A stretch of DNA of 64,000 nt. Origin: Phyllobates terribilis (lineage: Eukaryota). How positions within the stretch are numbered: the first letter of the stretch is position 1; each line of letters begins with the position of its first letter. Below the pieces are notes generated by a model, which saw only the letters and a program-made list of their open reading frames with translations, had not been told where the DNA came from and ran no database searches. This document shows, piece by piece, positions 10,830 through 64,000 of this stretch. The stretch covers positions 365,986,001 to 366,050,000 of the forward strand of contig NW_027362769.1 in NCBI RefSeq assembly GCF_046119375.1, written 5' to 3'. Both the position numbers and the translations under genes were made by a program.

Positions 10830-11566
10830 CATGAGGGTTGCATGTAGTGGGTCTTGCACACAGAATGTGCACAGTTCTGCAGGTTGTGAGGGCTTACATA
10901 ACTAAAGGTGTGATGTTGAGGGTCTTGCACATAGAGGGTAGTGATGCATACATGTGCTGGATGTTGTGGGGCCTTTCACAGGGAAGGGATTGTCCACTGC
11001 TAGAACAACCCCTGTTCATACCCCACGCTTGGCCCAGATAAAATAAAAAAGCCTATACTCAGCTCTGATGCCGTTTCAGCGGTGTCCGTACGAGCGGGCT
11101 CTGGGCTCCTGTGCGGTTGTTGTGTCACGTGACCCCAGCACCCAGTCAGCGCTGGCGTCACTGTTCCCACCTTCGTACAAACTGAACATGAAGAGGAAGT
11201 CTGAGATCAGCCACAGCCCTGACTTCCTGTTGATGTTCGATTTGTACGAAGGTGGGGACAGTGACGCCAGCGCTGACTGGTCGCCGGGGTCACGTGTCAC
11301 AACAACCGCACGGGAGCCCAGAGACCACTCGTACCGACACCGCTGAAACGGCATCAGAGCTGAGCATAGGCTTTTTTATTTTATCTGGGCCAAGCGTGGA
11401 ATATGAAAAGGGTTTGCCCTAGGAGCGGATAACCCCTTTAATGCAGTATGTTGTGGGTCTTGCACAGGGAAGGGGGGGAAGATGATGTACATGAAATGTG
11501 CTGATGCTTTATGCACAGGACTGCCTGCATGTTGTGGGGCTTGCACAGTGAAGGGGGTGATGCATG
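10830..11566. repeat. Degenerate GCATGTTGTGGGGCTTGCACAGGGAAGGGGGTGATGCAT-type tandem repeat; resumes at 25087-25460 after the LTR insertion
   Basis: The same motif lies on both sides of the 11567-25086 element; about 118-bp periodicity at 25090-25440. Confidence 0.65.
10985..11441. mobile_element. T2/Kolobok-like palindromic MITE
   Basis: AGGGATTGTCC ... GGATAACCCCTTTAA termini; about 190-bp internal arms that are reverse complements around 11205-11220. Confidence 0.75.
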
Positions 11567-12925
11567 TGTGACGCCTCTACTCAGAGAAGCCCGTGTTTTA
11601 CCCTGGGTGATGGGGGACTCGGTGTCGGGCCCTGTGATGGAGAGATGGGATGCAGCCGTGGCCTGGGCCTGACTCGTGCTCAGGGCCGTCACATTAGAAA
11701 GAGATGCTGTGGGCTTGTCCGGGTTGAGTGGCTTATTTTAATGACTACGCCACCTGTGGTGCCTGGTGAAGGGTCACCAGCGCCGCTGCAGTCCGCTGAG
11801 GCCCGGTGTCATGGCGGCTAAAGTTCTCGCTGCTCCCCACAGGCGGAGCAAGGCCTCAGGGCAGGCAAACAGGAAAGAGAGGGGGTAGTAGTGCGGGGAG
11901 TACGGGCACCGCGTCGCATGGTATGCCGCGTAATGAACAGTCCGGAGGCCATAGGGGTGAACTTCCAATGCTTTACTCACTTAGAGATGTCAGCGGGAAG
12001 GCGTCTCCCTGCTCCCTGCGGAGTCCTGCGGCCACCAGGGACGGGGGTCCGACTACCTCCGAGAAAGTCCAGTGTTCGGTAGCGACCCTACACCAGAGTG
12101 TTCCTGCACTATAAACTTCACCCTTTCCCGTCTGTGCGTGTGTAGATAGGCCGGGTCTCCCTCTGAGCTCCTCTCAGGACTAGGGCACGGGTGGCAATTC
12201 CTCTCCATCCGATGCCCGGTGGGATCCTCAGGGCCTAACCGGGCTTTCCCGTCCAGGACATAGAGTACAAGGTCGGGTGTCGAGGGCCGGTACCCCTCTT
12301 GCAGCCGGAATCCCTCTGAATAGATCAGGTAGTCGAGGACAGGTGGCGTGCTCCGCTCCATCTGCATCCTCCCCGGGACCCATTTTCTGGGGAGCCACAC
12401 TCTAAAGCTCCCAGGGCCTTCTTGATCCTGGTCCTTGGCCGGGTTGAGACATTACTTGTCTACAACCTACCTCTCGTCCCAAGGCCAGGGTACGAGGGCT
12501 GTGTCCCTTACCGGCGCAGGCCCACACAGGATCTGCGCTCCCGGAGGGAAGTCACATTACACACAGTATTTTGACTGCAAAGAGACAGCCGACAGACTAG
12601 CAAAGGCTAGACAAAGGACCAGAGAAGAACAACAGACCAAGATCAAAGATGGCTTTCTATTAAATATGAAATTTAAGGTGTAACTAACTTGTAAGTCCTC
12701 CACCCACACCCACTAACTGCTTCCTACCACTTTGTGTTCCCCAGTCTCCCTGTAACCAGGGGAGCAACACCTAGTGCATACTAGCTCCCTCTGGTGGAGA
12801 AGTGTGGTGTTGGATGCAAGGCTGGGTCGCGACCATCACACCGGGCTTACCTCAGAGGAGGAACACTACACTCCATTAGAGAAGCGCAGCATTCCTGTGG
12901 CGGTCGAACCCTCAGGGGCGCCACA
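11567..12925 (-). repeat. 3' LTR
   Basis: TGTGACGCC...GGCGCCACA; PPT AGGGGGTAA adjacent on the minus strand. Confidence 0.92.
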
Positions 12926-13076
12926 TTACCCCCTGGTAAAACACAGCACGTCCGCGGGCTGCAAAAGAAGCAACACCCAGGATGTTTTCTTTTTATGATA
13001 ACATGCAAAACTATCATCCCTTTATGGGAGGCACATTTCTTAAACGTTACATAACAAGGTGCATAGTATAAAAGTA

Positions 13077-13100
13077 TCTACTATATAATTGTCTTATCCC

Positions 13101-13132
<32 letters not shown>

Positions 13133-15177
13133 GTCTGTCTTTCTGTCTGTCTTTCTGTCTGTCTGTCTGTCCTGGAAATCCCGCGTCGCTCATTGGTCCG
13201 GCAGAGGCCAATCAGCGCCGCGGGATTTCTAAAAAAAGATGGCGGCCGTTAGCGGCTCATCTGACGGACGGAGGTCAGCGGCGATGCAGCGGGGAGATGA
13301 GCGGCGCTAGCAGCACAACTACCCCGACCGGCGCCGCTGACCTCCATGCGACTAACGTCGGAAGATCAGCGGCTTGGCCCGCTGATCTCCCGACAGCAAG
13401 TGTGAACGGAGGACCGGGGAGTGGCGCCGCTGGTCGGGATGCTTCTGCTGCGAGCAGCCGCTCATCTCCCAGCTTCTCGCAGCAGAAGGAGCCGCACAAG
13501 CAGCGCCGCTCCCCGGTCCTCGCTAATACGGAGCTGCACAAGCAGCACCGCTCCCGGGCCCACACTAATACCATGCTGATTGGTCGCGGTGGCCGGCCGC
13601 GACCAATCAGCGAGATGGGCGGCAAATTTAAACGCCGCTCTGCTGATTGGTTGCTGCCGGCCACCGCGACCAATGAGCGAGATGGACGGCAAATTTAAAC
13701 GCCGCTCTGCTGATTAATCGCCGCCAGCCACCGCGACCAATCAGCGAGATGGGCGGCAAATTTAAACGCCGCTGTGCTGATTGGTCGCGGCCGGCTACCG
13801 CGACCAATCAGCGAGATGGACGGCAAATTTAAACGCCGCTCTGCTGATTGGTCGCGGTAGCCGGCCGTGACCAATCAGCGAGATGAGTGGCAAATTTAAA
13901 CGTTGCTCTGCTGATTGGTCGCGGCCGGCCACCGCGACCAATCAGCGAGATGTCCGGCAAATTTAAACGCCGCTCTGCTGATTCGTCGCGGTGGCCGGCA
14001 GTCCGCGACCAATCAGCGAGATTGGCGCCAAATTTAAACAACGCTCTGCTGATTGGTCGCTGACGCCAGACGCGACCAATCAGCGAGATTGGCGCCAAAT
14101 TTAAACAACGCTCTGCTGATTGGTCGCGGACGGCAGACGCGACCAATCAGCGAGATTGGCGCCAAATTTAAACAACGCTCTGCTGATCGGTTGCGGTGGC
14201 CGGCCGCGACCAATCAGCGATTTTGGTGCCAATTTGAAACACCGCTCTCCTGATTGGTCGCGGTCACCGGCCGCGACCAATGAGCAGTATTGGCGCCAAA
14301 TTTAAACCCCGCTCTGCTGATTGGTCGCCACCGCTGGCCACGACCAATCAGCGATTTTGGTGCCAAATTTAAACAACGCTCTGCTGATTGGTCGCGGTCG
14401 CCAGCCGCAAACAATCAGCAGTATTGGCGCAAAATTTAAACCCTGCTCTGCTGATTGGTCGCGACTGCCGGGCGCGACCAATCAGCGATTTTGGCGCCAA
14501 ATGTAATCTCCGCTCTGCTGATTGGTCGCCAGCCGCGACCAATCAGCAGTATTGGGGCCAAATTTAAACCTCACTCTGCTGATTAGTCGCAACCACCTGT
14601 CGTGACCAATCAGCGATATTGGCGCCAAATTTAAACACTGCTTCGCTAATTGGTCGTGGTGGCCGGCCGCGACCAATCAGCGATATTGGCACCATATTTA
14701 AACACCGCTCTGCTCATTGGTCGCGGTTACCGGTCACGAATAACCAGCATTATTGGCGACAAATTTAAACACCGCTCTGCTGATTAGTCGCGGCCGTAAC
14801 CAATCACCATTACTGGCGCCAAATTTAAATAACGCTCTGCTGATTGGTCGCGACCGCCGGCCGCAACCAATCAGCATTATTGCTGCCAAATTTAAACCTC
14901 ACTCTGCTGATTGGTCACGTTCGCTGGCCGCGACCAATCAGCATTATTGGCGCCAAATTTAAACACCGCTCTGCTGATTAGTCGCGACCGCCGGCCGTGA
15001 CCAATCTGCGATATAGGCGCCAAGTTTTAACACCGCTTTGCTAATTGGTCGCGGTTGCTAGCCTCGACCAATCAGCGATTTTGGCGCCAAATTTTAAAAC
15101 CGCTCTGCTGATTGCGCCCGGTCGGCCGCATACCTATTCTAGAATACCCGATGCGTTAGAATCGGGCCAACATCTAG
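13077..15177 (+). mobile_element. Non-autonomous Helitron-type element
   Basis: 5' TCTACTATATAATTGTC, (CTGT)n, 3' hairpin CCCGATGCGTTAGAATCGGG followed by CTAG; inserted between A and T; no TSD. Confidence 0.88.
13580..15115. repeat. About 67-bp palindromic minisatellite (about 23 units), each with inverted CCAAT boxes
   Basis: Unit AAATTTAAACGCCGCTCTGCTGATTGGTCGCGGCCGGCCACCGCGACCAATCAGCGAGATGGGCGGC. Confidence 0.95.
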
Positions 15178-15948
15178 TAAAATTATAAAAGTGCTAGCAT
15201 TTTTCCAGAGACATTATTGCAGACAGACAGGTAAAGTGCAAGGACACCGAGTCAGTTCAGAAGTGCGAGGGACCGGTCCTAAACCCTCCACGTTGGCCCT
15301 GGGGTGGCTGCAAGGCATGCAGATCCAGAGTTGGACCTCCCGGAGAGCCACCCTAACAGGTTTTTCTTCTGAGGTTTTGAGGTAGAGAATATCCGCGGTT
15401 TTGCATAAAACCAATATGGAGCACCTAAGGAGATGCAAACTATATACAGGGTGAAAGAGTCTGTCTGCTAGTCCGCAGGGACAGGTGTCTCTAGAAACCG
15501 GGTTAGAAATTAAGCATAATAGGAAAAGTCAACTTTTAAACTTGTAAACAAAACTGCAACAACAGCCGGGGGCTGCTTTAAACTTCGGGTTGCCGTCTTG
15601 GAAAGGGCTCATTCCTCCCGACGGTGGCTAGCCAGTCCCCTGAGGCTGAGCGCGGGGTGGCGTCACTCCCGGACACTTTGTGTACGTCCAGGGCGTACCA
15701 CCCACGCTCCCCCTGGTGGCGAGTGAAAGTCACTGTGTCACATAGGTGTCACATAGTTAGTAAAGCCGAATAAAGACTTGCGTCCATCAAGTTCGACCTG
15801 TTAGGTCTGTAATTGCTAAAGTTGATCCAGAGGAGGGCAAAAACCCCAAATGATTTGGCCAATCTTCACCTGAGGAAAAATTCCCTCCCGACTCTGAAAC
15901 CAGCAGTCAGAATAAATCCCTGTATCAACCTTCTATTTTATTCTATTG

Positions 15949-17856
15949 TTAAGTATATGCAGAAATCTGCCTGGTATCTAGAAAAGCATCCAGTCCCCGC
16001 TTGAACTGGTGTAGTGAATCCGACATTACCGTCTCCTCACTCAGTGAATTCCATATTCTCACTGCTCTTACCGTAAAGAACCCCTTCCTATGCTGGTGCT
16101 GAAACCTTTTCTCTTCCAGTCTTAGTGAATGCCCTCTTGTTACCGTAATATCCCTCCTTTTGAACAAATCCCGGGCAAGGTCTCTATACTGTCCCCTAAC
16201 ATATTTGTACACATTTATTATGTCCCCCCTCAACCTTCTCTTTTCCAGGCTGAATAGTCCTAGTTTTGCCAACCTCTCTGGGTATTGCAGTCCCTCCATT
16301 CCCCTTATTAATTTTGTTGCCCTCCTTTGTACCTTTTCAAGCTCATTTATATCCTTTCTATATATTGGGGCCCATAACTGAGCACAGTATTCCAAGTGTG
16401 GTCTGACCAGTGCTTTGTACAGTGGAAGAACAATGTTCTCATCCTTTGCAGCTATACCTCTTCTGATACATCCCATTACCCTGTTTGCCCTTACAGCAGC
16501 GGCCTGACTTTGGGCACTCCAATTTAGTTTGCTATCAATCAAGATGCCCAAGTCCTTCTCCATCTCTGAATTCCCCAATGATTTCCCATTCAGTGAGTAC
16601 TGGTGACTTCCATTTTTCCTTCCCATATGTATGACCTTACATTTCTCCTCGTTAAACCTCATTTGCCATTTAATGCTCCACCTACCCAGCTTATCCAAAT
16701 CCCTCTGTAGGTCTGCACTGTCCTCTTTTGTATTAATTGTTTTACATAACTTTGTGTCATCTGCAAATATTGATATTTTACTATTTATCCCGTTGACTAT
16801 GTCGTTAATAAAGATATTAAATAACATTGGGCCTAGTACAGACCCCTGTGGTACCCCACTAGTGACGCTTACCCAATCTGAGTATATTCCATTTATAACC
16901 ACCCTCTGCCTTCTATCCTTTAGCCAGTTAGCTACCCACTTGCAGACATTTTCCCCCAGCCCCATCATTCTCATTTTGTATACCAACCTATTATGTGGCA
17001 CGCTATCGAACGCTTTTGAGAAGTCGAGATACACGACATCCACTGGTTCCCCCTGATCTACTCGAGAGCTCACCTCCTCGTAGAAGTCAATCAGGTTTGT
17101 TTGGCAGGAGCGATTCCTCATGAATCCATGTTGGTTCGGGGTTAATAGATTATTAGCATCAAGATGCTCCATGATTGCCTCATTAATAAAGCCTTCAAAA
17201 ATTTTGCCCACAACGGACGTCAGACTCACCGGCCGATAGTTTCCGGTGATACTTTTTGCTCCCTTTTTGAATATTGGCACTACATTCGCCTGTCGCCAAT
17301 CAAGTGGTACAGACCCAGTCTCAACAGAGTCCTTAAATATAAGATATAATGGTCTGTCTATCACATTACTTAGTTCCCTTAGTACCCGTGGGTGTATGCC
17401 ATCAGGTCCTGGTGATTTGTTTATTTTAATGTTACTGAGGCGTTTCTGTACCCCAGCTTGGGTTAGATTTGTCATACTTAGTGGAGGATTAAGCTTGTCA
17501 CTTCTCATTTCGCCTGTTAGTTCTTTTTCCTTTGTGAAAGTTGACGAAAAAAATTTATTTAATAGATTAGCTTTATCCTCATCTTTCTCTATGATTTTGC
17601 CTTCATCACTTTTTATCGGTCCAATATTATTCGATTTAATCCTTTTACTATTTATATACGTAAAGAACAGTTTGGGATTTGATCTACTTTCCCTAGCAAT
17701 ACGTCTCTCTGTTTCCTCCTTTGCTATTTTTATTTGTTTTTTGCAGGTTCTCGTTTTTTCCTTGTAACACATTAGTGCCTCCTTACTGTTTTCCTGTTTT
17801 AATCTCTTGAATGCCTCTTTTTTGCTATTTAACGCCCCTTTTACGTTCTTATTCAA
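15949..17856 (-). pseudogene. CR1 ORF2, reverse transcriptase part
   Basis: KSPGPDGIHPRVL, NYRPVSLTS, YLDFSKAFD, GVPQGSVLGP, FADD; separated from the endonuclease part by a frameshift near 17995. Confidence 0.93.
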
Positions 17857-17990
17857 CCATATTGGTTTCCTCTTATTTCTGGCCCTTTTATTCCCATACG
17901 GTATATACCTCTCGCACTGAGTATTCAGAATTCTTTTGAAGGTTTCCCATTTACTATTCGTATTTCCTTGATTAAGAACTTTGTCCCAGT

Positions 17991-18848
17991 CTATAAGTGA
18001 AGGTTTTCTTTCAGCTGATCAAACTTCGCCCTCCTAAAGTTTAATGTTTTAGTTGTTCCCTTATTGATAACCCTACTGAAGGGCATTTTGAAATTGATAA
18101 TATTATGATCGTTATTACCTAGGTGCCCCCCTATCTGTACCTCAGTTATTCTATCAGGCCTATTAGTCAATATTAAGTCCAACACTGCCTTCCCTCTCGT
18201 TGGTTCCTGCACTAGTTGGGAGAGATAATTATCCTTGATATTTGTCAAGAACCTTTTTCCTTTCTGCGATCTACAGGTTTCTGTTTCCCAGTCAATATCC
18301 GGGTAGTTGAAGTCCCCCATTACAATCACCTCATTATGTTTTGCTACTTTGTCTATTTGTCCTAATAGCAGTTTCTCATTCTCCTCTGTTATATTGGGTG
18401 GCTTATAGCAGACCCCCAGTAATATTTTATTATTATTTTTTGCCCCCTCTATCTCTACCCACATGGACTCGACCCCCTCTTCTCCCTCTCCTATATCTTC
18501 CCTTAGTCTGGGCTTTAGACGTGACTTTACATATAAGCAGACTCCTCCGCCCTTCCCCTGTTTCCGGTCCCTTCTAAATAAACTATAATCTGTTAAATTT
18601 ACCGCCCAGTCGTAGCTATCGTCTAGCCAAGTCTCTGTTATACCTACGATGTCATACCTCTCCTCCGATATAAGCGCCCGCAGCTCATCCGCCTTATTGG
18701 TCAGGCTTCTTGCGTTGGTCAGCATGCAAGATAAAACTTTGGGGTTATTTAGCATCCTATTCTTCTCTAACGATCTAACTGTACTATCCCCACCCACCTC
18801 TCCACCCTCATTATATTCACTTCTCCCCTTCCCCCTTGCTTGCCTCAC
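17991..18848 (-). pseudogene. CR1 ORF2, APE endonuclease part
   Basis: TNARSL, DIVGITETWL, GGGV.LYV, YKPP, MGDFNYP, LDLIL, NDH (canonical SDH). Confidence 0.9.
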
Positions 18849-18882
18849 ATCCCACCTATTTCCGTGGTTTCCCCCCCCATCT

Positions 18883-19809
18883 CTAGTTTAAAAACTCCTC
18901 CAACCTATTAGCCATCTTCTTCCCCAGCACCGCTGCACCCTCCCCATTGAGGTGCAGCCCGTCCCTACGGTAGAGCCTGTAGCCGACAGCGAAGTCGGCC
19001 CAGTTCTCCATGAACCCAAACCCTTCTGCCTTGCACCAACTCTTTAGCCACTTATTCACCTCCCTAACCTCCCGTTGGCGCTCCTGTGTGGCTCGCGGGA
19101 TTGTTAGTATTTCTGAGAAAACTACCTTGGAGGTCCTTGCCCTAAGCTTCCTACCTAGATCCCTGAAATCATTTTTAAGGACCCTCCATCTACCACTCAC
19201 TTTGTCATTGGTGCCAATGTGGACCATGACCGCTGGGTCTTCGCCAGCCCCACCCAGTAACCTGTCAACCCGATCCGCGATGTGCCGGACTCGAGCGCCA
19301 GGGAGGCAGCACACCGTTCGGCGATCCCGGTCTTTGTGACATATTGCCCTGTCTGTCCCCCTAATAATAGAGTCACCCACTACCAGGACCTGTCTAGCCT
19401 GCCCTACACTTCCCCCCTCCCCCTCATTACTGGAGCATACACTCCCCCGGCGGTCAGAGGATCTGTCGTGCTCCAATAATGCCGGTTCTGAACCAGCCTT
19501 CCTATACTTCTTCCCTCTATCCCTTCTAACTGTTACCCAGCTCCCTGCCTGTTCAGCCTGCGCTTCCCCACTAAACTCCACCCCCAGTGTTGACCCATTG
19601 AGTGTCTGCTCGGTGAGCAGCAAACTCCGTTCCATGTTGTCGATGCTCCTCAGTACCGCTATCTGAGCACTTAGATCCAGGATTTGGGCTTCCAAGTGCA
19701 CGATATGCTCACATCTCTCGCAGCAGTATGGATCCCTGAGCGGTAGCTCAGGGAATGCATACATTGCGCAAGATGTACACTGCACGGCTCCGGCCAACAT
19801 GGACGTCAT
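18883..19809 (-). CDS. CR1 ORF1: zinc finger/leucine zipper plus SGNH esterase domain
   Basis: CTSC...CCERC, coiled coil, VVGDSIIR, HIGTND, DGLHLN; frame uninterrupted. Confidence 0.9.
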   Translation of the reverse strand: MTSMLAGAVQCTSCAMYAFPELPLRDPYCCERCEHIVHLEAQILDLSAQIAVLRSIDNMERSLLLTEQTLNGSTLGVEFSGEAQAEQAGSWVTVRRDRGKKYRKAGSEPALLEHDRSSDRRGSVCSSNEGEGGSVGQARQVLVVGDSIIRGTDRAICHKDRDRRTVCCLPGARVRHIADRVDRLLGGAGEDPAVMVHIGTNDKVSGRWRVLKNDFRDLGRKLRARTSKVVFSEILTIPRATQERQREVREVNKWLKSWCKAEGFGFMENWADFAVGYRLYRRDGLHLNGEGAAVLGKKMANRLEEFLN

Positions 19810-19872
19810 TCTAAATATGGGGATACAGTCAGTATATATGTACAAGTACAAAACACAATTATTTATATATAG

Positions 19873-20590
19873 GTGTATGGACGGGGATCAATTAGGGATG
19901 TGCAAGTGTATCGATTAGATATCGGCGCGGGATCAGTTAAGTATGGACGGGGGATCAATTAAGTATCAATTAAGTATGGACGGGGGATCAGCTGAGTGGG
20001 TCAGGTGGATTAATTAAGTATGCACGGTGTGTCAATTAACTATGGACTGGGATCAATAAGTATGAACTGGGGAAATAATTAATTGTGGACTAGGGAATCA
20101 ATCAATTAATTATGGACAGGGGGTTTAATTAAATAGGATTTGGGGTAAAGCAAATAAATAGGTATGGACGGTGGGTCAATTAACTAAGGACTGGGGATCA
20201 ATAAGTATCAATAATATCAATAAATATGGACTGGGGAAATAATTAATTGTGGTCTGGGGAATCAATCAATTAATTATGGACAGGGGTTAATTAAATATGG
20301 TGGGGGATAAGGCAAATAGATAGGGACTGGGGATGAGTAAAAGTGGACAAGGGGAATCTATTAAATAGGACAAGGGGGATCAATCAATTATGGGCTGGGG
20401 GGGTCAATCATTTAAATGTGGTCAGGGGGATCACTTTAATATGGACGGGGGGTGGTCGGGGATCAATTAAATGAGGACGGGGGGGTCAATTTAATGTGGT
20501 CAGAGGGATCAGTTAAATATGGACAGGGGTGTTCAGGGGAATCAATTTAAATATGGACGGGGGGGTAATCAATTAAATATGGACTAGGGA
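19873..20590. repeat. Degenerate roughly 20-bp tandem repeats in the CR1 5' UTR
   Basis: Recurrent ATGGAC(G/T)GGGG(G)ATCAATTA motif. Confidence 0.7.
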
Positions 20591-20850
20591 ATACAATACA
20601 ATTACAATACAGATACAAATACAATACAGTACAGTACACACTTGGGTTCAGTAGGGCCGCTTATCGCGGCCTCCTGCCCCTCACTCACCTCCTCTAGGGA
20701 CGCTGCACGCTATCACAGCGCGCTTGTCCCTCCGGTCGCCTCTTACCGGTCCTCCTGATCACCTCCTGGTCACCACCACCTGGCACCCTCCGCTGGCCGG
20801 CACTGCACGCTGCCACAGCGCTCTCTTGCGCTCGTCCCTCCGGTCGCCTC

Positions 20851-21225
20851 CTACTGGTCCTCCCGGTCCGCTCGGTCACCTCCGCCTGGCTCTCCTCCTG
20901 GGAAGAGGTTCCGACCGGGGTGTCCCTTCTTGAGGCGCTGCTCGACTTCCCGCCGGCTGACGAACACATCGTCCTGGAACTGGGGACACCGGATGAACCC
21001 CCACCCCGCCTCACGATGAAAACGGACGACTTGGCCTTCGTACCGGGGACTGGGATGGGTGGCCTCCTCCTGACGCGCCCGAGTTTTTGCAGCTTTGGTC
21101 CTGACCTCGAGGTGCTCGCAGCGCTGCTCCCGCCGACGCTGCTCCCATGCGAGCTGGAATATCTGGTCGCTGCACCACTGGATCCTCCTCCGCGCTTCAG
21201 CCCTGGTCTCCCGGGGGAAGCCCAT
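20851..21225 (-). CDS. 124-aa ORF with a cold-shock (CSD/OB-fold)-like domain
   Basis: YEGQVVRFHREAGWGFI...DDVFVSRREV matches the CSD pattern GxVKWF....G(F/Y)GFI...DVFVH; ATG overlaps the upstream stop (TAATG). Confidence 0.7.
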   Translation of the reverse strand: MGFPRETRAEARRRIQWCSDQIFQLAWEQRRREQRCEHLEVRTKAAKTRARQEEATHPSPRYEGQVVRFHREAGWGFIRCPQFQDDVFVSRREVEQRLKKGHPGRNLFPGGEPGGGDRADREDQ

Positions 21226-21827
21226 TAGGTCGCCCCCCTAGTTTTCCCAGGCCCAATCCTCAACCTCGGGCCAGGTTCCTGCCATGCAGGTAGCGGGGTT
21301 AGAACGGGTTGCTGCGAGTCCTCTGTAGACGCGGACCAGTCCGGGTTGGAGCCGGTAGTTTCCTCTGCAGCTTCAGGCACCTCCGAATCAGGGTTTGGGC
21401 GGCATCGCAGGTCCTCACACATGGCTGCCGATTCCAGCTCTGGAGCCAACGCTTGCTCCCAGGTGACCTCGTGGGGAATCAGGTACTCCGACATGAGGTC
21501 CAAGATAGTCACGGTAGGCTCTGCAGCCAGGGCAGGGGTTGCACACTCACCCGCCGCTGGGCCGCTCTCGACCTCTGTCACCGAGTCGACTTGTCCTGGG
21601 ACCTCTACTCCTTGACGGCGGTCCCGGATACGCAGCAGCATCTCTTCCCGCCACGTAGCCGTCGCCGCCTCCTGGGCCTCTATCTGCCTTCTTAGGAGTT
21701 CCGGAGCTTCCTGCTGGAGAAATGTAATATCTCCCGGGGTCAATACGCTGCCGCCTTGCTCTCTGCCGGGTGAAGGGCCTGAACCGGGTTCAGTAGATGC
21801 GTGGTCTTGCTCCCCAGAGGCATCCAT
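21225..21827 (-). CDS. 200-aa acidic, predicted coiled-coil ORF of unknown function
   Basis: Open frame downstream of the PBS; its stop overlaps the start of the CSD ORF; no gag motif recognised. Confidence 0.5.
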   Translation of the reverse strand: MDASGEQDHASTEPGSGPSPGREQGGSVLTPGDITFLQQEAPELLRRQIEAQEAATATWREEMLLRIRDRRQGVEVPGQVDSVTEVESGPAAGECATPALAAEPTVTILDLMSEYLIPHEVTWEQALAPELESAAMCEDLRCRPNPDSEVPEAAEETTGSNPDWSASTEDSQQPVLTPLPAWQEPGPRLRIGPGKTRGAT

Positions 21828-22186
21828 GTCTGCCTCCGTTGACTGCCAAGCTCCAACTGCAATGGCCGAACCTTGTTGCTTTGCTTCTTCCTCCTCTCTC
21901 GGGGCGGTTCCTGGGCGGAATGCTGACAGGCCCGCCTTTGTTCAGCCCATCCAGTTTGATGGGCATTACCCCGCGGACAGTCTCTGATGGAAGGGGCAGT
22001 CCACCTTTTTGGCGCCAAGCGGGAGCCCAGCCCACGATGGGAGGTGTTCAAAGACAGTCTTTTCACAGCATTATGGCGTCTGTTCTTCTTGGGCGGGCGC
22101 CATTTTAAGTGTAAACAACAGTTCAAGGTGTAAGGCACACAGTACCCGATAGCAATGGGCACTTCTTCCTTTGCTGCGGGCACGCG

Positions 22187-22204
22187 ATCCTGCCGACTAC
22201 GCCA
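22187..22204 (-). other. Primer-binding site complementary to the tRNA-Ser (AGA-type) 3' end
   Basis: TGGCGTAGTCGGCAGGAT, 3 nt from the LTR; the plus strand reads ATCCTGCCGACTACGCCA as in vertebrate tRNA-Ser. Confidence 0.9.
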
Positions 22205-22207
22205 GGT

Positions 22208-25086
22208 TGTGACGCCTCTACTCAGAGAAACCCATGTTTTACCCTGGGTGATGGGGGACTCGGTGTCGGGCCCTGTGATGGAGAGATGGGATGCAGCCGT
22301 GGCCTAGGCCCGACCCGTGCTCAGGGCCGTCACATTAGAAAGAGATGCTGTTGGCTTGTCCGGGTTGAGTGGCTTATTTTAACGACTACGCCACCTGTGG
22401 TGCCTGGTGAAGGGTCACCAGCGCCGCTGCAGTCCGCTGAGGCCCGGTGTCATGGCGGCTAAAGTTCTCGCTGCTCCCCACAGGCGGAGCAAGGCCTCAG
22501 GGCAGGCAAACAGGAAAGAGAGGGGGTAGTAGTGCGGGGAGTACGGGCACCGCGTCGCATGGTATGGCGCGTAATGAACACTCCAGAGGCCATAGGGGTG
22601 AACTTCCAAGGCTTTACTCACTTAGAGATGTCAGCGGGAAGGCGACTCCCTGCTCCCCGCGGAGTCCTGCGGCCACCAGGGACGGGGGTCCGACTACCTC
22701 CGAGAAAGTCCAGTGTTCGGTAGCGACCCTACACCAGAGTGTTCCTGCACTATAAACTTCACCCTTTCCCGTCTGTGCGTGTGTAGATAGGCCGGGTCTC
22801 CCTCTGAGCTCCTCTCAGGACTAGGGCACGGATGGCAATTCCTCTCCATCCGATGCCCGGTGGGATCCTCAGGGCCTAACCGGGCTTTCCCGTCCAGGAC
22901 ATAGAGTACAAGGTCGGGTGTCGAGGGCCGGTACCCCTCTTGCAGCCGGAATCCCTCTGAATAGATCAGGTAGGCGATGACAGGTGGCGTGCTCCGCTCC
23001 GTCTGCATCCTCCCCGGGACCCATTTGCTGGGGAGCCACACTCTAAAGCTCCCAGGGCCTTCTTGATCCTGGTCCTTGGCCGGGTTGAGACATTCCTTGT
23101 CTACAACCTACCTCTCGTCCCAAGGCCAGGGTACGAGGGCTGTGTCCCTTACCGGCGCAGGCCCACATAGGATCTGCGCTCCCGGAGGGAGGTCACATTA
23201 CACACAGTATTTTGACCGCACAGAGACAGCCGACAGACTAGCAAAGGCTAGACCAGGGGTCCTCAAACTACGGCCCGCGGGCCACATGCGGCCCGCGGAG
23301 GACTTTTATCCGGCCCGCCGGGCTATGGGTGGAGGAGAGGGGAGCGGTGTCAGCACCCGCCCTTCTCCCCCGCTTGCTCAGGGCCCCGGCAGGCGGATAC
23401 TTACCTCTCCCTGTGCCTCTGCAGATCCGCTGTCTTCCTGCTCTACGCTTTCTGTGACGTCTCAGGTCAGAGGATGCGGTGACGTCTTTACACCGCGCCC
23501 TCCCGAGTGCCGTCACAGGCAGCGCAGAGCGGGACGACGCCGCCGCGACGCTGGAGTCCAGACCAGAGTAGGGCAGCGGCAGCGGCAGCAGGTGAGAAGT
23601 GAGGTGAGTATTGGATTTTTTTTTTTTTTTTAATGTATGGAGGCATAGGTCATTATATGGAGGAGTGACATCCTGCAAGGGGTATAATATGGGGAGGTGA
23701 CATCCTGCATGGGGCATGATATGGGGGGTGACATCCTGCATGGGGCATTATATGGGGGGGTGACATGCTGCAAGGGGTATAATATGGGGGGGTAAACATC
23801 CTGCATGGGGCATGATATGGGGGGGTGACATGCTGCATGTGGCATTATATGGGGGGGGGGGTGACAAGCTGCATGTGGCATTATATTGGGGGGGTGACAT
23901 GCTGCATGGGGCATTATATGGGGGGTGACATGCTGCATGGGGCATTATATGTGGGGGGTGACATGCTGCATGGGGTATAATAAAGACAGGGGAGAGTTAT
24001 CCTGCATGGGGCATTATATGGGGGGTGACATCCTGCATGGGGCATTATATGGGGGGTGACATCCTGCATGGGGCATAATATAGGGGGGGTGACATGCTGC
24101 ATGGGGCATAATATGGGGGGGTGACATGCTGCATGGGGCATAATATGGGGGGTGACATGCTGCATGGGGCATTATATGGGGGGGTGACATGCTGCATGGG
24201 GCATTATATGGGGGGGGGAACAGCCTGCATGGGGCATTATAAGGGGTGGAACAGCCTGCATATGGCATTATAAGGGGGAAACAGCCTGCCTATTTGGAAC
24301 ATTTACCTGCCCATTGAGGACCTATGCTGCCTATTGGGGACATTTACCTGCCTATTGGGGACCTATGCTGCCTATTGGGTACATTTACCTGCCTATTGGG
24401 GACCTATGCTGCCTATTGGGGACATTTACCTGCCTATGGGGGACATTTACCTGCCTATTGGGGATATTTACCTGCCTATTGAGGACCGATGCTGCCTATT
24501 GGGGACATTTACCTGCCTATTGAGGACCTATGCTGCCTATTGGGTACAGTTACCTACCTATTGAAATACCGGTTGATTTAACTTTACTTGTTCTTCATTT
24601 TAAATATTGTATTTGTTCCTGTATTGTTTTTTTTACTACAAAATAAGATATGTGCAGTGTGCATAGTAATTTGTTCATAGTTTTTTTTAAAAACTATATT
24701 CCGGCCCTCCAATGGTCTGAGGGACCGTGAACTGGCCCCCTGTTTAAAAAGTTTGAGGACCCCTGGGCTAGACAAAGGACCAGAGAAGAACAACAGACCA
24801 AGATCAAAGATGGCTTTCTATTAAATATGAAATTTAAGGTGTAACTAACTTGTAAGTCCTCCACCCACACCCACTAACTGGTTCCTACCACTTTGTGTTC
24901 CCCAGTCTCCCTGTAACCAGGGGAGCAACACCTAGTGCATACTAGCTCCCTCTGGTGGAGAAGTGTGGTGTTGGATGCAAGGCTGGGTCGCGACCATCAC
25001 ACCGGGCTTACCTCAGAGGAGGAACACTACACTCCATTAGAGAAGTGCAGCATTCCTGTGGCGGTCGAACCCTCAGGGGTGCCACA
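22208..25086 (-). repeat. 5' LTR, interrupted by a hAT MITE
   Basis: Highly similar to 11567-12925; 1359 bp after removing the MITE and one TSD copy. Confidence 0.92.
23254..24765. mobile_element. hAT (Charlie-like) non-autonomous element with internal roughly 30-bp and roughly 20/40-bp minisatellites
   Basis: TIR CAGGGGTCCTCAAACT/AGTTTGAGGACCCCTG, 8-bp TSD GGCTAGAC; empty site visible in the other LTR near 12605. Confidence 0.93.
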
Positions 25087-26039
25087 CATGCATGGCATTG
25101 CATATTGTGGGGAATTGCATAGGGAAGTGATGTTGCATGTTGGGGACTTGCATATATAAGTGGGTGATGTTGAGGGTCTAGCAGAGGGAAGGGCGTGATG
25201 CATGCATGGCACTGCATATTGTGGGGAATTGCATAGGGAAGTGATGTTACATGTTGGGGACTTGCATATATAAGTGGGTGATGTTGAGGGTCTAGCAGAG
25301 GGAAGGGCGTGATGCATGCATGGCACTGCATATTGTGGGGAATTGCATAGGGAAGTGATGTTGCATGTTGGGGACTTGCATATGTAAGTGGGTGATGTTG
25401 AGGGTCTAGCACAGGGAAGGGGGTGATGCATGCATGTGTTGCATGTTGTGGGGGCTTTTACAGGGAATGAGTTATGGGCACACCATCTGTACTGTCAACG
25501 CTTTGAACGCAGTATACTTTATGCTGCGTCCAAAGCGCTGCACGCAGGTGAATCCGCATGTGTTCATTGAACCATGCGGATTCACCCCATCCTATACATT
25601 GCACTGATCTAATTTCTCTTGTGGAGACTAGCGACTCCGCAAGAGAAATTGACGGAAAGACGCGCCGCAAGTCCGTGTCCGCGGGTGATCCGCAGGTGCC
25701 TGGAGATGCATAGTGGGCATGGGATTTCTTCAAATCCCATCCACTTTGCTTGTATTATCGAATGCTGTGGTTTGCACGCAGCGCAAGTGTGCTGCATCCA
25801 ATCAGCAGCGTTTACTGACCGTGTGCACATACCCTTTATGTTGCATGTTGGCGCCTTGCATATGTAAGGGGGTGTTGTTGCATTTCATTCCTCTTGCATG
25901 TAGAATTTGACTGATGCTGCATGTTGGGGGGCTTACACACTTAAGGGGTGCATCTGGAATCATAATATCTGTTAAAGGGGCCCACTGAGACTCTTTCGCC
26001 CGGGGCCCACAAAAACCTGGAGCCGGCCCTGGTGTGTAT

Positions 26040-57457: not shown

Positions 57458-58451
57458 TGTGGCACCCCAGGGGTCTGGTTTTCCACAGTAATGTAATGTT
57501 ATGTCTGAGAGCAGGTGGGAGGTCCTTTGGTCAGGGATCCTGTGCATGCCACACCTCCTGCCCAGTCTTGGGAGGGGAAGAACTTCCCCTGTATAAACCC
57601 TGGGCTGAGGCAGGGTTAGTCAGTCAAGGAGAGTAGAGACAAGAAACAGTCACAGAAAGAAACAGCAGAAGCTCAGTGGGAGCAATACTACTACAAGTCA
57701 GGGGCTGGCAGCTGCAGAGCTCGCCCTGACTGAGAAGCTTTCTTACCGGACCCGGCGTCCGAGGCTGTGGGGACTAACTCTTACCCAGCAGCAGAAGCCG
57801 ACCGGCAGGGGATTTCAGGTCCTCAGGCCCAGAAACCCGAAGGCACGGTCACACGCGTGGGACCAGCACCGCCATCGTGGAGCGGAAGCCATTAGAAGGC
57901 CCCGAGTCACCGGCCATACGGGTGAGTACCACACGGTACACTCAGGGACGTGGGCTACTTATATCCGCTTCTAGCAAGGTAGCCAGAAGAGTACAGTCAG
58001 TTTGGGAGGCCTACAACTCCGCCTGGCCAGGGGAGATCCCATCTGCTCAAGGACTGACCAGGCCCCGTTCACTAGCAAGTACTCCGGGAGGGTCTATCGT
58101 TGTTACCAGTAAAGACCCTGAATTACACCGCACCGTCTCTGAGTGGTTCCTGCTACCCCCATCATCCACATCTGCTGCCCTGAGGCCATACCCCTCCCGT
58201 TGGGGGTTATACCATCTACGCTGCACCATCCATCCACCGGCCTCAGCGGACTGTCCTGCAGCGGCAGCTCCATAGCTGCATTCAACGGGTGGCGTAGTCG
58301 TCCTGCATCTACCGCTGTTACATCGCCGCTCAGTTTGACTCCCTGGGCACGGACCGGGTCACCGCCACGAGACTACAACCCTCAAGAGATCCGGCTCCGG
58401 GTAAGCTCCCGCGTGTGCAACGCAGCGCGACACAGGCCCAGGGGCGCGTCA
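57458..58451 (+). repeat. 5' LTR
   Basis: TGTGGCACCCC...GGGGCGCGTCA; TATAAA near 57592; followed by the PBS. Confidence 0.85.
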
Positions 58452-58455
58452 ACTT

Positions 58456-58474
58456 TGGTGTAGTCGGCAGGATT
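58456..58474 (+). other. PBS, tRNA-Ser
   Basis: TGGTGTAGTCGGCAGGATT (one G:U pair versus tRNA-Ser). Confidence 0.88.
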
Positions 58475-58892
58475 TCGTGCCCGCAACCACCGGGTACTAC
58501 GTGCCTGAAAAAGAGACTTTTCAAACTTACCTGTGGTGAAGATTCCCGCCATCCGGCGCCATCTTCAGCCTTCTTCCCGCCATCGGTGAAGTTTCCCGCC
58601 ATCCGGCGCCATCTTCTGCCTTCTTCCCGCCATCCGTGGAGTTTTCCCGCCATTGGACGCCATCTTGAGGACGCCGCACGGGAAGATGAGGGGCGTGGAC
58701 TCCGAAAGCGCGCGAGAACTGAAGCCCCGCCTCACGTCCGGACGTTGCGTAAGGTCCTGGAAGGAGCCCAGCAGACGCCGACGTCACAGGAGCGCGACGG
58801 AAGGTCCTCAACCCTGACGATCCACTGCGGAGCCGCGGCCTACGGAACAGGATCATCGCAAGGTAGGCCACGGTCCACTAGGGGGGAGGAAG

Positions 58893-59873
58893 ATGTCGGA
58901 TACGGAGGAGAGCTTCACTGCCTCAACCCCCGCCAGCGCTACCGCTGCTGCAGTTATGCCCTTCACCAAGCCCTATATCCCGGGAGCAGCTTGGCTACCC
59001 CAGTACTCAGGGGAGTCACATACCCTGCATGACTTTAGAGAAAAGCTGGATAGCCTCTTCCAGGTGTACCCCCTCACAGAAGAGCAAAAAGTGAGCATCC
59101 TGGTGGCCCAACTAACCGGGGCAGCCAAAAGGGAAGTAAAATCCTGGCCACCTGGGAGGAAGACTGTCGCAGGGATACTAACCCGGCTGAAGGACACCTT
59201 TGATACCCGCACCTCAGCCGAGATTAAGCTTAGATTCTACGGGTGCAAGCAGCGAGCGCATGAGAGTATAAGGGACTATGCACTAAACCTACAAGAGGCC
59301 CTGAGGGCCATTAAGCAGACCGACCCTGATGGAGTGGGAAACGAGGACAGGCTGTTGACCGAACAGTTTATAGAGGGACTGTATTGTAATACCCACCGAA
59401 CCCAGTTGCGGGCAATGGCCTTACAGGATCCCCATCAGGGCTTTGCACAGTTCAAGGACAGAGCCATCCGGGTGCTCCGAGAACCGGCACCGGGTGGCGT
59501 TGTGACCCACAGGCGCCCAGCTAGCACTTACCACCAGGAGGCGGCGCCCTTGTCGGCAGGGCCTGTGGGAGCTGATGCGCAGGCTTTGGACAATGACCCG
59601 GCTCCAGACCTACACCATCAGGTCCAAGAGCTAGCTAAGAGCGTTGCTGCGCTAACCCGAACTGTGCAGTCTTTACAGGTTTCCACCCCAGGGAAGATCC
59701 AGCTGGCATCCGGACCGGAGGACATCCCGTGGCGTCGACCAAGGAGGACCCCACCGGCCAGAGGAAGACCCAGTGACCGATACAGCAAGGACGGACGACC
59801 CATCTGCCGCCGCTGCAATCAACCTGGACATATGGCAAGGTACTGTTCTTTAAACGGGCACAACCTGGGGTAG
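58893..59873 (+). CDS. gag: gag, 326 aa
   Basis: PQYSGE...LTGAAKREV, E.I.DY...L, CRRCNQPGHMARYC zinc knuckle. Confidence 0.92.
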   Translation: MSDTEESFTASTPASATAAAVMPFTKPYIPGAAWLPQYSGESHTLHDFREKLDSLFQVYPLTEEQKVSILVAQLTGAAKREVKSWPPGRKTVAGILTRLKDTFDTRTSAEIKLRFYGCKQRAHESIRDYALNLQEALRAIKQTDPDGVGNEDRLLTEQFIEGLYCNTHRTQLRAMALQDPHQGFAQFKDRAIRVLREPAPGGVVTHRRPASTYHQEAAPLSAGPVGADAQALDNDPAPDLHHQVQELAKSVAALTRTVQSLQVSTPGKIQLASGPEDIPWRRPRRTPPARGRPSDRYSKDGRPICRRCNQPGHMARYCSLNGHNLG

Positions 59874-62800
59874 AGGGCCAACCCCCAGGAAAAAGATCAC
59901 CAGGCCCATCGAACTGGCGCGACAGATATGTGGGAGGACGTCCAGTCTTGCCTGTGGTACTGGATGGCATTCCCATGAGTGCCCTACTGGACACCGGGTC
60001 ACAGGTCACCACCATCCCGTACGTGCTCTTTAAGCAGTACTGGAATGACTCGGATATTACCCGCTACCCTGACGACGACTTGAGTATCATCGCCAGCAAT
60101 GGCCAGCCCGTGCCACAGATCGGATTTAAAGAGGTGACCATCAAAATCGGTAGAGTCGAACTGGCAGCACAGGGACTGATCATTGTAGATATTGACAAAC
60201 ATGAGAGTCACCCAAAAATAACTCTAGGAACTAATGTAATTGAAAATTGTCTTGCAGAGGTGATTTTCCTTTTACAGCAGGTTGCCAAGAACGCCAGCTC
60301 CGGCGAGCAGCGGGTGCTCCAGAAAGAAATCCGGGCACTGATGCGACGGCAACAGGTGGAACTCTCCGGCGGTGAGATTGGTAGCGTAAGAATGTGTGAC
60401 CCTTTTCCTATTGCCATGCCCCCAAAAAGTGAAATGATGATTTGGTGCCGGGCAGCTATTGGTCTGAGAGGTAGAGATTACCAGGCAATGGTAGAACCAG
60501 TTTACTCGGACAGTAGGCCCACCATTTTGACAGCACGGGGGGTGGTTGATGTACGCCATGGGAGGGTGCCCGTTCGCATAATAAATATCGGGGAGAGGGA
60601 AGTGTACCTGCCCCGGTATGCCACGCTAGCCAAATTATATACCATTAACCAAAATTCTATACAATCTGTGGAACCCTTGCCTCCATCTCACCCGGAGGAA
60701 GGTAACGGCTCTAAGAAAAACATGGAGGACTGGTGTCAGCAACTACATCTGGGTACTGACTCCACTCCCGCACACCAGAAACAAGGAGTCTATCGGGTGG
60801 TTCAGGAGTACGAGAGAGTGTTCAGTAAACACCCGTTAGACTTCGGGCGAGTCAAGGGGGTAGAACACCACATCCCCACGGGAGACCATCCTCCTATAAA
60901 AGAGAGGTATCGACCCGTACCCCCTGCCCACTACCAACACGCCAAGGGGATGCTTAGAGACATGAAGAAGGCTGGGGTGATCAGGGATAGCTGTAGCCCC
61001 TGGGCAGCTCCACTAGTCTTAGTCCGAAAGAAAGACAACACCATGAGGATGTGTGTAGATTACCGGAAAATCAATCGTATCACACACAAGGATGCGTACC
61101 CCTTACCAAGGATAGAGGAGTCATTGGCTGCTTTAAGATCTGCTAACTTCTTCTCTACCTTGGATCTCACTAGCGGGTACTGGCAGGTTCCTGTAGCAGA
61201 GGCGGACCGGGAGAAGACCGCATTCACCACCCCGATGGGACTTAGCGAGTTCACCTGCATGCCGTTCGGACTCTGCAACGCACCGGGAACCTTCCAACGA
61301 CTAATGGAGTGTTGTCTGGGCCACAGAAACTTCGAGACGGTCCTGTTGTACCTGGACGATGTCATCGTATATTCCAAGACGTATGAGGACCACCTGAAAC
61401 ACCTGGCGGAAGTGTTCGAAGCTCTTGCAAGTTACGGCCTAAAGGTGAAACCCTCCAAGTGTCACCTCCTGAAACCAAAGGTGCAGTACCTGGGACACGT
61501 GGTAAGCGCTGACGGAGTGGCTCCCGACCCTGATAAGATCACCGCAATTAAGGAATGGCCAAGCCCCTCCAGCGTAAAAGAAGTGCGGCAGTTCCTCGGG
61601 TTGGTAGGCTACTACCGAAGGTTTATTCCCGGTTTCACCAAAAAGGCAGCACCTATGCAGGACCTCCTGATAGGCCAGTCCCGGAAGGCCAAGAACCAGA
61701 AGCCGCCCTTCAAATGAGAGGAGCTGGAAGAAGAGTCCTTCCGCCAGCTGAAGATGGCCCTCACGGGGGACGAAATCCTGGCGTACCCGGATTATAGCCA
61801 GCCCTTTATCCTCTACACCGACGCCAGTAACATCGGGCTAGGAGCCGTACTGTCCCAGATCCAGCATGGGAAGGAACGAGTAATCGCCTACGCCAGCCGA
61901 AAACTGCGACCCACCGAAAGGAACCCCGAGAATTACAGCTCATTTAAGTTAGAGTTCCTGGCCGTAGTATGGGCAGTCACCGAGCGCTTTAAGCATTACC
62001 TCGCTTCTTCCCGGTTCACCGTGTACACGGATAACAACCCGTTGACACACCTGGACACGGCAAGACTCGGTGCCCTGGAGCAGAGGTGGATGGCCCGTCT
62101 GTCCAACTACGAGTTCACAATCAAATACCGGGCAGGACGCTCCAATACCAACGCGGACGCCCTGTCCAGGATGCCCAACCTGCCGGACGGAGGAGAAGAT
62201 CCGGAGGGACTGGAAGAAGTTGAACTCCCTGCGTTCCACCGTCATGGGACTATCCAGTATTCCCACCGGGTAAGGAGTAAGCAGGCTGCTACGTTGAACC
62301 CCTTACCCCACTACAACTGGGCGGAAACGCAAGACAGCGACCCTGCCGTCCGACTGGTGAAGGAGATGCTGACTCGGCCGGAGGCTCGCCTTGAACCAGA
62401 CGCTCCGGAGGAAGCCAAACAACTATGGGCAGAGAAGAGTCGACTGTTCCTTTACAAAAGGAAGTTGTGCCGCAGAATGGTTAACTCCCGGACGCATGAA
62501 TTACTCTGGCAAGTAGTGGTGCCACGAAGAGACGCAGCCATGGTGATGGAGGCATACCACGACGTAGCTGGACACTTCGGGTGGAAGAAGCTGGAGTTCC
62601 TGCTGCGCGAGCGGTTCCACTGGGTAGGCATGAGGGGAACCATCGAGAAGTGGTGCAGAGACTGTGGCCCGTGCAACCTGAGAAGGAAGGACCGTGCCAG
62701 CCAGAAGACTCCCCTGCAGTCCATTGTCACCCGGCAACCGTTGGAACTGGTAGCCTTGGATCATGTAAAACTGACCCCAAGCAGAAGTGGCTACGTCTAC

Positions 62801-63985
62801 GCGTTAACCATCGTGGATCATTACTCCCGGTTTCTGGTTGTCGTCCCCGTCAAGGACTTAACGGCTCAAACAGCAGCTAGAGCCTTCCAGCAGCACTTTT
62901 GCCGTCCACACGGGTACCCGGACCAAGTGCTGACGGACCAGGGACCTGCCTTTGAAGCGGAGGTCTTCCAGGAATTCTGCAATCTGTATGGCTGCCGGAA
63001 GATAAGGACGACACCCTACCATCCGCAAACTAATGGACTTTGTGAGAAAATGAACCAGGTGGTAATGGATCTTCTAAAAACGTTGCCCCTGGAAGAACGC
63101 AGTCTGTGGCCTGAGAAGTTGCCCGATCTGGTGGACCTATACAACCACATCCCGGTAGGTTCCACCAACTGTACCCCGGCTTACCTAATGAGGGCAAGAC
63201 CTGGTAAGTTACCTGTTGACCTGGAAATGGGAGTCCTGACACCCGAGGACACTTCACCAGAAACAGACTGGGACACAGAGAGGCAGCAGCAGTACCGGAG
63301 AGTACAGGAGAGCGTGGAGCGAAGTCTCTGTCAGGCTAGGGAAAGACAAGAGAAAACTTACAACCAGTATGGTCCCGCTGTTCCCCTGGTACCCGGAGAG
63401 CAGGTCTTGAAGAGGAAGAGACGGCTCCACAAGTTGGATGACCAGTGGGAGAAGGACCCGTACACCGTACTGCCCTCAAGCCACGAGAACCCGAAGGTTT
63501 GTACCATCAGTAAAGACGGAGGGGAAACCACAGCCATTGTATCCCGGGACCACCTGAAGAAGTGTCCCGAACAACTGAGAAACCCTGAAGAGGAACAAGA
63601 AGACCATCGACCCGTAGAGGAAAGGGAAGATATGGTTAGTACTGTGCTCGGGGACTTCCCTCGGTCTTGGACTCAAGTCAATGGTGCAGTTGTGGTACCC
63701 GTACTCACCTTCCTCCAACCAGCATCCCAAGCACCTACGGAGCAACAGGTAGAGCTGGAAGAACAGCCGGTCCAGGAGGCAGAAGACTCCACACAAGCAG
63801 AACAGGAGGATCAACCCTCTGCTTATAGTGAGCCTGCCGTACCCCTAGTGAGACAAAGAGCCGGTAGACAGCTGCCCAGTTTACCCTTGACAGCTCCTAC
63901 ACCCTGTAGTTCAGGGCTAGACAGTCAGCTCCGTAGGTCCACTAGGGCCACTAGAGGCCAGTTACCCGCACGCTGGAGGATTTGA
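59852..63985 (+). pseudogene. pol: pol in the -1 frame, with one in-frame TGA at 61715-61717
   Basis: LLDTGSQ, MCVDYRKIN, YLDD, LYTDAS, HHCC, LDH...TDQG...GLCE; ORFs 59930..61717 and 61754..63985 share a frame. Confidence 0.93.
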
Positions 63986-64000
63986 AGTGTATAAATTGTT

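Follow-up and report, generated by a model that had tools for sequence, protein, structure and literature searches.

The element analysed here, in a window of 64,000 nucleotides from the poison frog Phyllobates terribilis (the whole stretch of DNA under study), belongs to a group of LTR retrotransposons in which one open reading frame (ORF), ending in a cold-shock domain (CSD), is all that is encoded. The window copy is a damaged member of what we call family A, with one frameshift and with insertions of a CR1 LINE, a minisatellite element and a MITE, and very recent insertions, recognised by their young LTR pairs, are found in its sister families; the CSD elements are still spreading. From the anatomy of the element, dependence on a helper is close to certain. 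Judging by sequence evidence, we somewhat favour the view that these are helper-dependent satellites whose protein would bind its own RNA in cis and so favour the survival, packaging or priming of that RNA.

The window element runs from 25086 to 11567 on the minus strand and is flanked by CATG target-site duplications (TSDs). Its parts, and an autonomous Gypsy element at the end of the window, are as follows.

25087..25090, no strand: 4-bp TSD CATG on the 5' side of the element
22208..25086, minus strand: 5' LTR, 1359 bp without its insert, TGTGGC..TCACA
23254..24765, no strand: MITE of 1.5 kb, presumably hAT-type, inside the 5' LTR, with 8-bp TSD GGCTAGAC
22187..22204, minus strand: primer binding site (PBS), 18 nt complementary to the 3' end of tRNA-Ser(AGA/TGA)
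21225..21827, minus strand: 5' part of the ORF (helix 1 and disordered linker), the 200-aa ORF
20897..21283, minus strand: middle part of the ORF with the W..G.DLMGF motif, long helix 2 and the first CSD half (RNP1, RNP2)
about 15740..20896, minus strand: full-length CR1 LINE within the CSD
18883-19809, minus strand: CR1 ORF1 (esterase)
15949-18887, minus strand: CR1 ORF2 (EN-RT)
15578..15739, minus strand: 3' part of the ORF, second CSD half and tail, up to the stop
about 13078..15177, no strand: 67-bp-minisatellite element in the 3'UTR
12926..12937, minus strand: polypurine tract (PPT), one base unlike the usual family tract
11567..12925, minus strand: 3' LTR
11563..11566, no strand: 4-bp TSD CATG on the 3' side of the element
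57458..64000, plus strand: autonomous Gypsy AUT1, 7.9 kb, continuing 1.3 kb beyond the window end

An initial annotation of the window had proposed a non-autonomous LTR element at this place, and the LTRs, the Ser-type PBS, the PPT and the CATG TSD bear this out, with no PR, RT or IN; LTRs of the form TG..CA, a tRNA PBS, a PPT and a short TSD, together with the lack of PR, RT, RH and IN, define a non-autonomous element of the Ty3/Gypsy type. The LTRs had been called intact, which holds for the TG..CA pair (26 differences in 1359 nt) but not for the 5' LTR, which is interrupted by the MITE that we take, from its 8-bp TSD and terminal repeats, to be of the hAT type. Likewise, the internal region is free of pol as stated, but measures about 2.0 kb once the inserts are removed and not about 2.2 kb (1.9-2.07 kb in 12 family A copies). 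The two ORFs that had been read here, of 200 aa (21225-21827) and 124 aa (20851-21225), are present as such, but they are the parts of one broken gene, since the loss of 1 nt near 21284 shifts the frame of the last ~19 codons of the former and intact natural copies read through without interruption; the two-ORF reading is therefore rejected. The CSD motif and domain reported in the 124-aa ORF are genuine, but only the first half of the domain is there, because the CR1 splits it: this half ends at about 20897 and the second one begins again at 15739, and the last 14-15 residues of the 124-aa ORF are CR1 5'UTR.

A single insertion has given rise to at least 10 duplicates, the window copy among them; they lie in a duplicated histone-cluster block and span C9:361.6-366.5 Mb (L001-L007, L117, L124-L127, L138-L147), and the order of damage can be read from them. 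Duplicate L117 has the same flank and carries neither the CR1, the minisatellite, the MITE of the 5' LTR nor the frameshift; L006/L124-125 has the frameshift and the minisatellite without the CR1; and L001-L005 carry the CR1. Elsewhere in the window, a relative of the 67-bp-minisatellite element lies inverted at 27650-30317, and 37753-38760 is a solo LTR from a different Gypsy family, with 66% similarity to the AUT1 LTR and about 71% to the family B U5 over 300-370 bp.

Intact family A copies have one ORF, of 364 aa from the first Met, and the ORFs of the sister families have 500-600 aa. A common layout is found in all families, namely a variable N-terminus, helix 1, a Pro/Ala-rich linker, the W..G.DLMGF motif, helix 2, the CSD and a short tail. 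Whole CSDs reach 31-37 bits with Pfam PF00313, whose cut-off is 27 (three of three intact copies, model positions 2-65 of 66), whereas the half domain of the window alone stays below it (E=0.0012, 19 bits). In the AlphaFold2 model, made from a 24-row alignment, residues 31-73 and 209-257 form helices and the CSD (262-332) is a five-stranded OB fold with pLDDT about 90, the remainder beyond the helices being disordered; a model of the family C protein from a 15-row alignment contains no further folded domain (mean pLDDT 49). Both the profile and the predicted structure thus speak for the CSD/OB fold on which the initial annotation had made its case depend. Its likeness to the RNP motifs of YB-1 and CspA is also upheld: the top Foldseek matches in the PDB are cold-shock proteins with TM scores of 0.86-0.90 (CspA/CspB up to 0.90), YB-1 and UNR domains, and the sequence-profile matches in the PDB are led by YB-1/YBX2 with 46-47 bits, followed by CspA with 40 (Lin28 has 15 in another search). 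The ESM Atlas returned nothing beyond weak bacterial CSD-like matches below 0.9. The RNP1/RNP2 phenylalanines are kept in the element CSD, RNP1 has a Trp, and both the W of KWF and the H of FVH, which contact RNA in YB-1, are replaced, so that the specificity may differ from that of YB-1. RNA binding by the element protein is likely, as predicted from its membership in the CSD family.

The searched genome is the host assembly of 10.6 Gb, and intact natural copies were used for the analysis. DNA searches for family A gave 2953 first-look candidates with the ORF as query and 3171 with the 3'UTR, 40 of each being scored. Of the copies chosen by 3'UTR DNA, 21 were left once nine segmental duplicates had been dropped, and 18 of these are broken or cut; since most copies are broken and the LTR pairs are only about 95-98% alike, family A is regarded as older and decaying. 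The Pfam CSD model gives 33,380 candidates in the 10.6-Gb genome, and the exact codon pattern GWGFI-x7-DxFV has 27,428 matches genome-wide (0 for the reversed control), a count which uncollapsed haplotypes may inflate and which misses decayed copies. For a positional sample, 40 of the first 42 listed pattern sites were taken (two neighbours were skipped), covering the initial 16.3 Mb of contig C1; assigned by the protein that matches best, they fall into families C (25), D (10), F (3), A (1) and B (1). No pol is found between PBS/LTR and PPT in 39 of the 40 copies, the other one lacking these bounds, and a Ser PBS lies 1.0-1.9 kb upstream in 35. The ORF is open for at least 430 codons ahead of the motif in 31 copies. 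A single-copy unrelated insertion, the outcome against which the initial annotation had cautioned, is rejected. An LTR pair is present in 36 of the 40 copies, with a median identity of 99.6% (at least 99% in 27 of the 36), and 27 of 29 full LTR pairs have a perfect 4-bp TSD of their own. The copies go back to separate, recent insertions of the integrase type by elements with no integrase gene, and from young LTR pairs and individual TSDs in elements that have no pol we infer mobilisation in trans.

Some other CSD sequences of the genome were met in the course of these searches. L051-L056, which by their layout we take to be processed copies of CSDE1 interrupted by LINE sequence, and L071, presumably a decayed Y-box pseudogene from its sequence layout, were rejected as the source of the genome-wide CSD matches. 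A second CSD family (L198, L213-L222; e.g. C2:155166723-155171159) is old and unrelated-looking, with terminal repeats of ~190 bp, a short divergent CSD ORF, 811 first-look candidates and a long branch in the CSD tree, and is possibly an independent CSD capture. A divergent CSD ORF is present in three neighbouring paralogues at C4:791.48-791.52 Mb (L207-L209) and keeps the His of FVH; it may be a remnant of great age or a copy that has been domesticated.

Named protein relatives of the element ORF are uncharacterised and come from Ranitomeya variabilis, R. imitator, Phyllobates terribilis and Anomaloglossus baeobatrachus, all of them dendrobatoid frogs, so the clade spans the dendrobatoids, and the CSD-element domain is kept in three frog genera. 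Word-indexed and HMMER protein searches beyond the poison frogs gave, besides dendrobatoid records, only generic multi-CSD proteins, of which the four looked up are dinoflagellate-type transcriptome records; as annotations mask most ORFs of transposable elements, absence elsewhere does not follow from this. In three gene models of a poison-frog annotation (P0003, P0155, P0156), parts of the CSD ORF are joined with exons of a transposase or of the host gene R3HCC1; these models are likely annotation artefacts. With a family C query, 10 sequencing runs of 3 studies were matched, none recorded as RNA, and the contigs of 4 runs, which cover the family C element, carry no information on transcription or its level.

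Conservation of the ORF among copies, on which the proposal of the initial annotation also hung, is found: selection is purifying, with dN/dS about 0.1 in the CSD and helix 2. Among the 31 open positional copies the median dN/dS is 0.09 for the CSD, 0.10 for helix 2, 0.20 for helix 1 and 0.42 for the linker (363-434 non-independent pairs in 23 clusters, the search motif being left out of the CSD), and between subfamilies it is lowest in the folded parts, in a sample partly selected by CSD score. In 20 family A copies chosen by 3'UTR DNA, private non-CpG changes amount to 152 nonsynonymous and 71 synonymous ones (about 0.8) against 15 and 25 for changes common to at least three copies (about 0.22); the two classes differ with Fisher p=0.0003 in 20 copies and p=2e-6 in 28. 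Inactivating sites in the 28 copies number 34, of which 27 are private and 7 are common to 2-3 copies in changing combinations without a consistent group (four Trp codons, one CpG Arg codon, one Gln and one deletion behind the CSD). Neutral private changes next to purified shared ones mean that the protein is required for as long as a lineage spreads and becomes dispensable once a copy has inserted. This speaks for a benefit to the RNA that encodes it, and it is from this pattern, in 28 copies with 7 inactivating sites in 2-3 of them, that we infer action in cis. Purifying selection says that the protein matters to the element and does not tell at which step; that it helps stabilising, packaging or priming is a guess. 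Synonymous divergence is 0.46 in the 5' half of the ORF versus 0.75-0.81 in helix 2 and the CSD, and in families C and D that of the 5' half is about half that of the CSD region; the low value reflects RNA-level constraint near the packaging region, or recombination.

As to the helpers, the element PBS matches host tRNA-Ser(AGA) and tRNA-Ser(TGA) genes. A pattern search gave 36 matches, and the 12 loci examined comprise nine LTR elements with an over-copied primer and three tRNA genes; tRNA-Ser sequence beyond the 18-nt PBS is an imprint of real priming. In L176-L179 and L183-L187 the PBS is followed by more of the tRNA-Ser, which reaches about 45 nt in L178. The autonomous Gypsy AUT1 has LTRs of 995 bp with 99.8% identity and carries gag and pol without an extra ORF; it is very young and abundant, the 150 best gag matches being all 99-100% identical, some in tandem arrays. 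AUT1 has the Ser primer, the post-PBS bases, the PPT junction and the LTR end in common with families C and D, and its U5 is like theirs over about 500 bp at 71% versus 27 bp only in family A. When the Gypsy at 58456 was named as helper of the window element, the common primer and following bases were rightly seen, but with so short a U5 match AUT1 would be a candidate helper of the sister families C and D rather than of family A. A second, older Gypsy family, AUT2, has another Ser-type primer, which we take to be tRNA-Ser(CGA), and no CSD ORF, and shares with family A the LTR start, a 118-bp U5 block (71-84%) and pieces of the 3'UTR.

When the U5 of 49 elements was compared, AUT1 was the best match for each of the 39 copies of families B, C and D and AUT2 for all five CSD elements with the second Ser primer, and four of five family A copies are nearer to both AUT2 copies in spite of an AUT1-type primer. 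The sister families thus have their cis signals in common with an autonomous Gypsy, whereas in family A the U5 and the PBS point to different helper families; because the type of primer is linked to the CSD lineage, agreement in U5 cannot count as separate evidence for co-evolution. Two narrow patterns served to look for an autonomous element having the LTR of family A; with the first (1 match) and the second (21 of 48 matches inspected), none was found. Of the 21 loci, 4 had integrase upstream, with LTRs unlike those of family A in the three compared. The CSD as an accessory ORF of the two autonomous families checked, AUT1 and AUT2, was rejected, being absent from both. U3 sequence is common to the CSD families and absent from AUT1 and AUT2, and the picture suggested is that of a long-independent satellite lineage in which the 3' LTR half and the primer would follow different helpers. 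Seven CSD loci (L192, L194, L197, L238, L240, L082, L277) have the second Ser-type primer site and an AUT2-like U5. Their U3 starts as in other CSD families, and their LTRs look chimeric, as if they had recombined with co-packaged helper RNA.

In the mechanism that we propose, reverse transcriptase and integrase would come in trans from AUT1- or AUT2-like Gypsy families. The CSD was probably captured from a host Y-box gene, an origin not settled by a CSD tree of 29 rows, none of them host Y-box, with 4 of 26 branches supported. The protein would load during translation onto the RNA encoding it, which would be why lineages keep the ORF; its two helices may oligomerise or contact helper particles, the CSD would thus become an RNA chaperone or packaging adaptor, and the element's own RNA would be stabilised, packaged or primed in preference. 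Host YB-1 is described, in the accessible text of one report, as supporting the production of HIV, MLV and MMTV through the viral RNA (PMC6040738). A bolder form of this proposal, which we hold only tentatively, is that of a vertebrate satellite clade with a captured Y-box CSD as a cis-acting hijack protein, which would load its own RNA into the particles of several Gypsy families, swap U5 and primer ends to follow them, and make up ~1% of a 10-Gb genome.

Among other explanations, the one that survives best, though we think it unlikely, is that the protein coats the element RNA as Y-box proteins coat stored oocyte mRNA and protects it against degradation or silencing by small RNAs, without touching helper particles. 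This would also be a benefit in cis and fits the shared/private pattern of family A and the regional dN/dS; the best sequence matches are YB-1/YBX2, yet the host frog already has Y-box proteins of its own, and two helices conserved at dN/dS 0.10-0.20 are left unexplained. Gypsy elements are reported, in the part of the source consulted, as highly expressed in poison-frog ova (PMC6278860), but the protein is without the layout that Y-box proteins have in the accessible description, a CSD followed by a long charged tail (PMC6040738).

Less probable still is a decoy or antagonist acting in trans, by which the protein would titrate a host restriction or silencing factor or compete with host CSD proteins, to the gain of all related elements. 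A host-like domain in a selfish element and the very high copy number would suit it, but a common benefit should let ORF-less copies spread equally, and yet the shared changes are purified, most young copies are open, no broken-ORF lineage is found among the 28 copies, and the CSD gives no sign of fast amino-acid change. It is improbable that the protein is a much-altered Gag, comparable with TR-GAG or Xenopus 1a11/xretpos, with the CSD in place of the zinc knuckle and the helices building or joining the particle. The ORF does stand in the gag position, directly after the PBS, and a helix followed by a C-terminal nucleic-acid-binding domain recalls the coiled-coil and NC end of Gag; however, the profile comparison with AUT1 Gag gives a probability of 0.06%, no Pfam gag family is found in the ORF, in both AlphaFold models (from shallow alignments of 24 and 15 rows) the helices stand alone beside the CSD and form no capsid-like bundle, and the top Foldseek matches, in the viral library too, are CSD/OB folds only. 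A passenger, that is a captured host fragment constrained by RNA structure or open-frame needs and not by protein function, may be dismissed as very improbable: the lower synonymous divergence of the 5' half and the 18 broken or cut copies among 21 would agree with it, but amino-acid constraint is strongest in the folded parts, where synonymous sites run free, the domain persists across frog genera, and the private/shared contrast of family A with the regional dN/dS largely refutes it.

To our knowledge, non-autonomous LTR elements are regarded as either non-coding or retaining Gag; in the present case pol is absent, and what is kept under strong selection, in many families and at least three frog genera, is a host-type protein other than Gag with predicted RNA binding. 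That no family like it is described, as the initial annotation supposed, agrees with the literature, since no CSD-coding retrotransposon was found in it, including the accessible text of PMC11152451, PMC13583293, PMC4131045, PMC12440569, PMC6338049 and PMC12822217, though subscription papers, supplements, Repbase and Dfam may hold one; a domain survey of Xenopus LTR elements has no CSD among its examples in the part available (PMC4131045). If 27,428 copies average 4.8 kb, the CSD elements would amount to roughly 130 Mb, or 1.2% of the assembly, and they would be a concrete contributor to the recent Ty3 activity that is linked, in the accessible text, to anuran genome size (PMC12822217). Pipelines demanding pol would leave them unclassified; for D. 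tinctorius, 66,046 LTR elements are given as matching 'Unknown' repeats in the text consulted (PMC11152451). Such satellites would also offer a handle on how retrotransposon parasites gain access to helper particles.

Compared with known systems, the element CSD has the same OB fold with RNP1/RNP2 as YBX1/YBX2 and CspA, and YB-1 has a similarly long loop; it differs from Y-box proteins and CspA by an identity of about 31%, by the two changed aromatic/His positions and by the Trp in RNP1, and, unlike in Y-box proteins, it is C-terminal, behind two helices, and part of a mobile element. The near-invariant CSD, the N-terminal Ala/Pro domain and the long charged C-terminal domain of Y-box proteins are missing. 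TRIM and LARD elements are likewise helper-dependent LTR elements which keep only cis signals, but they are non-coding as described in the accessible text (PMC4350172), whereas the CSD element keeps an ORF under purifying selection. In the same text, the TR-GAG elements of plants are short and pol-less, have LTRs, PBS, PPT, TSD and one ORF, as here, and are thought to be moved in trans (PMC4350172), but their ORF is a recognisable Gag, while that of the CSD element is without Gag likeness and ends in a CSD. The nearest frog precedent, compared by description only, is Xenopus 1a11/xretpos, a pol-less LTR element with an ORF, expressed in embryos; its ORF is described as Gag-like, unlike that of the CSD element, its copies number tens to hundreds and are thought immobile, and no CSD is mentioned for 1a11 in the text available (PMC4585706).

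Three further systems resemble the CSD elements in helper dependence together with an own or captured gene, the hijack function being for the CSD element a putative one. Defective retroviruses depend on helpers and have a host gene between their LTRs, a cargo not serving long-term replication; the mammalian MaLR are helper-dependent with an ORF regarded as Gag-like; and phage satellites are bacterial DNA elements that hijack helper particles, in which a dedicated protein favours their own genome.
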